A DNA stretch of 64,000 nt from Escherichia coli (GTDB lineage: Bacteria; Pseudomonadota; Gammaproteobacteria; Enterobacterales; Enterobacteriaceae): the NCBI RefSeq assembly GCF_030013205.1, contig NZ_CP122648.1. One strand, 5' to 3'. Below the pieces are notes generated by a model. The model searched no databases, was not told the origin of the DNA, and saw only the letters and a program-made list of their open reading frames with translations. The position numbers and the translations under genes were made by a program. Below, piece after piece: positions 8,254 through 8,328 of this stretch (its first letter is position 1; each line of letters begins with the position of its first letter).

Positions 8254-8328
8254 TGGAGCGGGTAGCGGGAATCGAACCCGCATCATCAGCTTGGAAGGCT
8301 GAGGTAATAGCCATTATACGATACCCGC
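8254..8328 (-). tRNA. tRNA-Gly (anticodon UCC), glyT-like, carried by the prophage
   Basis: 75-nt cloverleaf GCGGGTATCGTATAATGGCTATTACCTCAGCCTTCCAAGCTGATGATGCGGGTTCGATTCCCGCTACCCGCTCCA; differs from chromosomal glyT (as recalled) by a compensated acceptor-stem pair. Confidence 0.85.

Follow-up and report, generated by a model that had tools for sequence, protein, structure and literature searches.

A prophage-borne, glyT-like tRNA-Gly(UCC) of Escherichia coli and the phage lineage to which it belongs

Introduction

Does a tRNA gene that resides in the late region of an Escherichia coli prophage supply a working tRNA, and, if so, from where was it acquired and to whose benefit would it be? The gene considered here is a tRNA-Gly gene within a stretch of 64,000 nt of E. 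coli DNA, hereafter the window. RefSeq and GenBank already list the gene as tRNA-Gly, and it is an ordinary member of a well-known kind, the tRNA genes of lambdoid prophage late regions. A sequence-only reading had proposed that the gene is complete, that it occupies the slot in which phages of the Stx type carry ileZ, argN and argO, and that it differs from chromosomal glyT by a single compensated base pair and is probably functional. We therefore compared the gene, its flanks and its codon environment with chromosomal glyT and with phage and prophage loci, and asked which explanation best accounts for its presence.

Results

A complete tRNA-Gly(UCC) gene

ARAGORN identified four tRNA genes within the window, the tRNA-Gly gene (Table 1) and the three chromosomal leuQPV genes. 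The sequence of the tRNA-Gly gene is GCGGGUAUCGUAUAAUGGCUAUUACCUCAGCCUUCCAAGCUGAUGAUGCGGGUUCGAUUCCCGCUACCCGCUCCA, with the 3' CCA encoded. Its match to the Rfam tRNA model RF00005 (8257-8328, minus strand, 65.6 bits, E 5e-12) covers model positions 1-71, which is the full model, against a gathering score of 29, and glyT of K-12 reached 64.9 bits in the same test. The cloverleaf has stems of 7/4/5/5 bp in which U13.U22 is the sole non-standard pair, one that glyT has too, and the minimum free energy fold (-26.4 kcal/mol, z -2.9) recovered the acceptor, anticodon and T arms. The anticodon UCC occupies positions 34-36 of the tRNA in the loop CUUCCAA, as in glyT, and ARAGORN likewise called the gene tRNA-Gly tcc, so that the anticodon assignment stands. 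Neither truncation nor broken stems nor a low score, the marks of a pseudogene or an att fragment, were found. The call of a complete 75-nt tRNA-Gly(UCC) is thus confirmed by ARAGORN and by a full-length Rfam match with nothing pseudogene-like in its score.

Position in a defective prophage

Over its first 24 kb the window shows 100% identity to the chromosomes of porcine ETEC (ETEC4069, ETEC4079 and K_EC180) and 98-100% identity to that of O139:H1 strain W13-16 and others. The tRNA gene together with both of its 100-nt flanks was found in only 23 of 5,426 complete E. coli genomes. According to the RefSeq record of the identical sequence, the tRNA-Gly belongs to a lambdoid prophage that lies between yjjG and prfC, in agreement with the proposal that the gene is prophage-borne. 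Both yjjG and prfC have been reported as insertion sites of Stx phages (PMC8065619).

Read along the minus strand from its start, the prophage comprises an integrase gene, the immunity region, genes for KilA-N and DUF968 proteins, Q, three cargo genes, the tRNA-Gly gene, two holin genes and the gene for an M15 endolysin. Past the endolysin gene follow a histidine-phosphatase moron and DUF1441, and then only fragments of terminase and tail genes. Head genes are absent and the terminase and tail genes are truncated, and since only these fragments remain we regard the prophage as a defective remnant. The tRNA-Gly gene lies between Q and the lysis genes on the strand of the late genes; the sequence-only reading had named no strand. 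The window coordinates of Q are lower by 1 than those in locus L005 because of a 1-nt indel.

Table 1. Window coordinates of the tRNA-Gly gene and of features of the surrounding prophage late region.
Feature	Position	Strand	Basis
tRNA-Gly(UCC), 75 nt, glyT-like, prophage lineage	8254-8328	minus	ARAGORN, Rfam RF00005, alignments
tRNA position 6: U (C in chromosomal glyT)	8323	minus	alignment; U in 5/5 aligned phage copies
tRNA position 67 (linear position 66): A (G in glyT)	8263	minus	alignment
Q late antiterminator gene, 121 aa	11180-11545	minus	PF06530, E 4.6e-52, full length
Low-GC cargo (32-43% GC), Q-to-tRNA interval	8745-11156	mixed	annotation, Pfam
Promoter-like TTGATA-16-TAGTAT	8443-8470	minus	consensus scan, 9-of-12 match; such sites no commoner than in shuffles
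Possible heavily decayed thrU-like tRNA-Thr(UGU) remnant	8332-8407	minus	global alignment to thrU, z ~2
Imperfect hairpin, 84 nt, 33 consensus pairs	8050-8133	minus (tRNA strand)	RNAalifold, 30 distinct variants
Terminator-like hairpin AACCGCC...GGCGGTT + T8	7972-7991	minus	scan
Second terminator-like hairpin	7933-7950	minus	scan
Third terminator-like hairpin, directly before holin ribosome-binding site	7821-7836	minus	scan
First holin gene	7403-7795	minus	RefSeq annotation of identical ETEC4069 sequence
Lysis cassette: holin, holin, M15 endolysin	down to 6758	minus	RefSeq annotation of ETEC4069

The cargo genes encode an AraC-family regulator (minus strand), a DUF6731 protein (PF20505) and a 122-aa ORF (both plus strand). 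The 122-aa ORF had no Pfam match, and none of the three had a match among the PADLOC models. At 8979-8985 the window has a run of seven T residues where ETEC4069 has eight, which shifts the frame of the AraC-family gene: the protein has 283 aa in ETEC4069, and no ORF of the window is longer than 207 aa here. The missing T may be a true frameshift, or else an error in the sequencing of the homopolymer.

Other genes of note lie elsewhere in the prophage. A 38%-GC gene at 6111-6686 on the plus strand, inserted against the strand of the late genes between the endolysin gene and DUF1441, encodes a protein of the histidine-phosphatase family, with the annotation LPS core heptose(II)-phosphate phosphatase. 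Adjoining the integrase gene, a DUF4365 protein is encoded at about 18762-19781 on the plus strand (35% GC); it weakly matched the PADLOC model for an Argonaute-associated REase-like protein (E 5e-7) and may be a defence gene at the end of the prophage. Just outside the window, at the prfC end of the same prophage and beside a DinI-like gene (locus L008, 10593-12492; NZ_CP122679.1, 4272592-4274491), a SLATT-domain gene overlaps a reverse-transcriptase gene (33-37% GC), and the two probably form a defence-associated RT system.

In the record of phage 933W (NC_000924), the tRNA slot holds pR', qut, terminators, a 'pT putative tRNA promoter', ileZ, argN, argO, a terminator and stx2. The 933W tRNA genes thus lie between Q, pR', qut and terminators on one side and the lysis genes on the other, on the late strand, as does the tRNA-Gly of the window. 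The order of Q, cargo, tRNA and holin and its agreement with the 933W record uphold the slot assignment of the sequence-only reading. In contrast to the Ile, Arg and Arg genes of 933W, the window has one Gly gene with no toxin genes after it.

One acceptor-stem pair distinguishes the gene from chromosomal glyT

Aligned with glyT of K-12 (NC_000913.3, 4175673-4175747), the window tRNA-Gly is identical at 73 of 75 bases. The two differences face each other in the acceptor stem, where C6:G67 of glyT is replaced by U6:A67, and the stem is fully paired in the Rfam alignment, so that the compensated change claimed at first sight was borne out. The D, anticodon and T arms, the discriminator U73 and the encoded CCA are the same as in K-12 glyT, which encodes tRNA-Gly2 (UCC). 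The chromosomal gene lies in the thrU-tyrU-glyT-thrT-tufB operon, whereas the window copy lies in a prophage late region without flanking tRNA genes.

All phage-borne copies compared carry U6:A67 and chromosomal glyT carries C6:G67. The pair therefore marks the phage tRNA lineage rather than a local event, and it most likely arose via a wobble intermediate and was then fixed in that lineage. Using a looser pattern to search for U6:A67 over species-representative genomes, we found the pair to be native in the chromosomal tRNA-Gly(UCC) of marine Gammaproteobacteria (Idiomarina, Marinomonas, Marinobacterium and others; 66-73 of 75 positions identical), which indicates that it is compatible with function. 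Its presence in the compared phage copies could be adaptive instead of a founder effect.

The phage-borne lineage is widespread

At an identity of at least 90%, the 75-mer matched 6,570 places in 5,420 E. coli genomes, with a median of one and a maximum of six places per genome; about 1,150 of these places exceed one per genome. In 268 of 5,424 E. coli records the best match was the exact window allele, and the class at 97.3% identity is chromosomal glyT. In the phage records of GenBank, the tRNA-Gly of SerU-LTIIb is 100% and that of vB_EcoS-683R6 98.7% identical to the window gene, and other temperate coliphages have 97.3% variants. A degenerate pattern built over the phage tRNA-Gly variants matched at least 120 IMG/VR contigs, and we compared 120 loci. 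Among these listed matches the window sequence is exact in 100 contigs, and the remaining 20 have one or two differences (C19U, C25U, C49U, A38G, or U8C with A38G), mostly D-loop or wobble-compatible.

Gly is almost always the last gene of an array in the 120 listed viral loci. ARAGORN found arrays in 110 of them and the arrangement Thr(UGU)-Gly in 75; longer arrays have a CAU tRNA (Ile according to PGAP), then Lys(UUU) or Arg(UCU), Thr and Gly. Gly alone was called in the other 10 listed loci, and in four of these (L167, L187, L199 and L222) a decayed thrU-like tRNA-Thr that ARAGORN missed lies upstream. The window tRNA-Gly likewise stands alone by ARAGORN. A second prophage of strain W13-16 has a full Ile-Thr-Gly array with the identical Gly allele, before a lysis cassette of the same type. 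Thus our analysis adds to the earlier description that the U6:A67 lineage is widespread and that the window copy is a reduced, solitary version of it in a defective prophage.

SerU-LTIIb (KU052038) and vB_EcoS-683R6 (ON470595) share with the window U6:A67, the slot upstream of the holin gene and a hairpin downstream of the tRNA. They differ in having a tRNA-Arg or tRNA-Thr gene 3-6 nt upstream of the tRNA-Gly, where the window has a doubtful remnant. The tRNA-Gly(UCC) of T4-like phages (Tequatrovirus) is also phage-encoded and has the same anticodon. At about 87% identity it is not derived from glyT, and it represents a separate lineage that belongs to virulent phages with large tRNA clusters.

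Seven of the 120 listed IMG/VR loci (within L129-L248) carry, directly upstream of the tRNA-Gly, a tRNA with the body of thrU (74 of 76 positions identical) and the anticodon UUU in place of UGU, which ARAGORN calls tRNA-Lys. Its sequence suggests a tRNA of prophage arrays that came from the host and had its anticodon switched.

Origin of the cassette

Only 3 nt separate the end of the phage Thr gene from the Gly gene, and in 48 of the 120 listed loci the Thr gene is identical to K-12 thrU over 76 of 76 positions. In K-12, thrU and glyT belong to one operon (NC_000913.3). Given this shared operon, the most plausible reading of the phage pair is a fragment of it that was captured and condensed, and the lineage as a whole would derive from the enterobacterial thrU-tyrU-glyT-thrT operon. 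Its evident descent from host thrU/glyT and the 84-nt hairpin that follows the tRNA set the cassette apart from that of 933W.

The exact or degenerate phage allele was absent from the GTDB representatives, at one genome per species. Marine Gammaproteobacteria were considered as donor and rejected, their identity of 66-73 of 75 positions being no closer than that of E. coli glyT. A match of 74 of 75 positions in a Corallococcus assembly, which lies on a contig of 423 bp with 0.67x coverage, was also rejected as donor and taken as contamination; the second 74/75 match is locus L096. An enteric origin followed by one compensated change is the simplest account, with the donor species not found among the GTDB representatives. 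We found no specific description of the Thr-Gly cassette, or of the hairpin downstream of it, in the literature.

Flanks of the tRNA gene

Homology to 111 of the 120 listed related loci begins at 8331, 3 bases before the tRNA, and in 63 it ends near 8050. These limits indicate mosaic junctions on either side of a block that holds the tRNA and the hairpin. Upstream of the tRNA, only one other locus type (L163) is related, with 81% identity over about 280 nt. Both hexamers of the promoter-like site of the window are kept in L163, and an AT-rich tract (about 8470-8560) precedes the site. Transcription from about 8436 would produce a leader of some 108 nt, and we infer that the site is a candidate counterpart of the 'pT' of 933W.

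The 76 nt directly before the tRNA-Gly gene may be a very decayed Thr gene. Their alignment to thrU is weakly better than that of shuffled sequences (z ~2, p 0.03-0.04), and neither ARAGORN nor Rfam (E<=10) finds a tRNA there.

Downstream, the first of three terminator-like hairpins (7991-7972) is the likely end of the tRNA transcription unit. A near-identical counterpart follows the tRNA array of phage 683R6 (L003, 5434-5453). The region 7808-7889, which contains the third, is conserved in relatives. The window has a candidate promoter (8470-8443) and a strong terminator-like hairpin that might serve the tRNA itself, both as consensus matches only. In the intact relatives 683R6 (L003, 4648-4858) and 933W (L251, 2667-3111), Q is followed by a terminator, and the tRNA array has a separate AT-rich, promoter-like region ahead of it; for this reason the cassettes look like self-contained units within the late operon.

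A conserved hairpin follows the tRNA

About 120 nt 3' of the tRNA-Gly lies an 84-nt block that is 86-93% identical in nearly all listed related loci, whereas the spacer before it is variable. The hairpin formed by this block follows the tRNA in about 105 of the 111 listed viral loci with enough downstream sequence (about 95%). In E. coli it is present in 387 of 5,426 genomes, at 504 places, where it is unannotated or lies under a 'hypothetical protein' and is never annotated as RNA. Only two of 50,697 phage records contain it, SerU-LTIIb and 683R6, which are also the carriers of the closest tRNA alleles.

Several observations suggest that this block is conserved as an RNA structure. Standard pairs occupy 98.7% of the 990 cells of the hairpin alignment, compared with 35-58% when the partners are slid. 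Fifteen pairs vary on one side only and remain paired via G.U, four have changed on both sides, and two variants have a different but still pairing sequence (GGGCU/AGCCC) as their apical stem. By a hand tally of the pair table, G.U pairs make up about 21% of the cells, and because these would be A.C mismatches on the opposite strand, they argue for an RNA from the tRNA strand. The predicted fold agrees, with -37.5 kcal/mol (z -4.5) for the tRNA strand against -21.5 (z -1.8) for the opposite strand. Since the shuffle control is known to be lenient for related sequences, we consider the covariation evidence good and short of conclusive.

No Rfam family matched the 84-nt hairpin at E<=10, and between the tRNA and the holin gene the same threshold gave only sub-threshold, terminator-driven matches (sroB, isrK and leader peptides). 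A small protein encoded in the block was rejected, since the frame of a 24-aa ORF (8031-8105) is lost in variants with 1-nt indels such as L145. A promoter within the hairpin (TTTACA-17-TATCGG) was rejected as well, the -10 hexamer being poor and variable while the pairing of the outer stem is conserved. Pas sRNAs adjoin holin genes in EPEC prophages (2026 preprint; PMC8550237). A comparison of window positions 7700-8800 with the PP2 and PP5 regions of E2348/69 (blastn, word size 7) gave only chance matches of 16-18 nt and no similarity to the PasA, PasC or PasD2 loci, and identity with a Pas sRNA was likewise rejected.

The hairpin could be a new structured RNA of lambdoid prophages. It could separate the tRNA precursor from the lysis leader or act as a regulatory RNA expressed in lysogens. 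With low confidence, we would guess at an RNase III-type processing or stability element on the 3' side of the tRNA precursor.

Codon usage of the prophage

The ileZ, argN and argO tRNAs of 933W read codons that are rare in E. coli, and our prophage codon counts agree with this. In 27 intact prophage genes GGA, a rare codon in host genes, occurs 15.6 times per 1000 codons; the rate in the 45 host genes on the flanks is 6.3 (Fisher test, odds ratio 2.5, p 1.6e-9), so that the tRNA-Gly reads a codon that the phage uses more than the host does. The codons read by other members of the arrays, ACA (18.7 per 1000 in the prophage, 6.1 in the host), AUA (19.7 and 3.4) and AGA (11.5 and 1.9), are 3-6 times enriched in prophage genes. 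AGA, AGG and AUA are enriched about sixfold, compared with 2.5-fold for GGA, and the prophage has no tRNA for those three.

Discussion

Taken together, our results make it probable that the gene encodes a functional extra tRNA-Gly of a phage lineage and that codon supplementation is its most likely benefit. The earlier judgement that the gene is probably functional and not decayed is supported, indirectly, by a score at the level of glyT, by unchanged positions for recognition by glycyl-tRNA synthetase (GlyRS) and by conservation beyond that of the flank. The GlyRS identity set, which we take to be U73, G1:C72, C2:G71, G3:C70, C35 and C36, is unchanged in all positions relative to glyT, and the pair 6:67 lies outside it. 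Thus the host GlyRS would be expected to charge the prophage tRNA-Gly, which would in turn add decoding capacity for GGA, and for GGG, in the AT-rich genes of the prophage and its cargo. Supplementation of GGA decoding would match the role proposed for the rare-codon tRNAs of 933W, and the commoner use of GGA in the prophage, which follow-up of the sequence-only reading was to examine, is in line with it.

Two routes of expression may be envisaged. By the first, the promoter-like site, the tRNA, the hairpin and the terminator at 7991-7972 would form a self-contained unit; by the second, the tRNA-Gly would be part of the Q-antiterminated late transcript. The three terminators before the holin gene would permit expression of the tRNA in a lysogen without lysis.

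Since the cassette has been reduced to Gly and the prophage is defective, any present benefit would go to the host and to other acquired genes, not to the production of phage. Several observations argue against a strong role here: the prophage is dead, which leaves no late-gene demand of a phage to be met, chromosomal glyT persists, and the enrichment of GGA falls short of that of AGA, AGG and AUA. For the lineage as a whole, up to five extra glyT-like copies per genome (the highest count being six places) could shift GGA decoding in those pathogenic strains that have many AT-rich acquired genes.

We regard as possible, yet doubtful, an extension of the functional reading in which the tRNA and the 84-nt hairpin together form a conserved RNA module of two parts and in which, separately, U6:A67 is adaptive. 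The hairpin is the sole element of this locus that might repay further work.

A neutral passenger would have remained intact through the recent spread of the cassette, would contribute nothing measurable to decoding and would in time decay. It would be at home in a prophage that is a remnant, and the same genomes retain chromosomal glyT, with at least three matching places per record. Furthermore, the window allele is the common allele, so that no constraint specific to its lineage can be read from it, and a possible decayed thrU remnant lies directly upstream. However, the gene is 97-100% identical between the listed viral loci and the adjacent spacer, the next 90 nt, only about 45-50%, and its few variants are mostly compatible with the structure. 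The upstream remnant, if real, also cuts the other way, as its decay beside a perfect Gly gene argues for selection. The high identity among the copies could partly reflect recent spread rather than selection. On balance we consider a neutral passenger rather unlikely, and we favour a functional tRNA.

Another explanation is that U6:A67 confers resistance to a toxin or nuclease that acts on the host tRNA-Gly(UCC), which would keep translation going during infection or interbacterial attack. There are precedents for phage tRNAs that evade anticodon nucleases, and U6:A67 is found in every phage copy compared and is missing from chromosomal glyT. However, the anticodon loop is the same as that of glyT, and no nuclease with specificity for the tRNA-Gly(UCC) acceptor stem is known to us. 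Fixation of the pair is equally well explained by a founder substitution, and the pair is normal in other Gammaproteobacteria. Resistance of this kind therefore seems very improbable to us.

We also find it scarcely credible that the tRNA sequence acts chiefly as a DNA site at which modules are exchanged or islands integrate, and not as a gene. The limits of homology, 3 nt before the tRNA in 111 of the 120 listed loci and near 8050 in 63, speak for such a role. However, the adjacent cargo comes with neither an integrase nor a direct repeat of the 3' end of the tRNA, the 5' junction is explained by the differing upstream tRNA content of the arrays, and an att core would not need all 75 nt to be conserved. 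Finally, a tRNA pseudogene or a chance tRNA-like sequence has practically no prospect of being correct, as we found no support for it and it is refuted by the ARAGORN call, by a full-length Rfam match that scores as glyT does, by four stems intact save for U13.U22 and by the alignment with glyT.

The tRNA itself adds one more case of lambdoid phages that carry rare-codon tRNA genes before lysis or toxin genes. The cassette, traceable to the thrU/glyT operon of the host, is a clear example of the capture of host tRNA genes by a phage. Additionally, U6:A67 separates the phage-borne copies from chromosomal glyT and could aid prophage typing and allele-specific expression assays.

Apart from the prophage, the window contains at 24625-24947 on the plus strand the three tandem tRNA-Leu(CAG) genes leuQPV, which are adjoined on the minus strand (24395-24477) by the REP-derived naRNA4 (Rfam, 70.3 bits); both are ordinary chromosomal features. 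At about 43335-43911, between yjiA and mdtM, a BrnT/BrnA toxin-antitoxin pair lies beside a degraded IS1.
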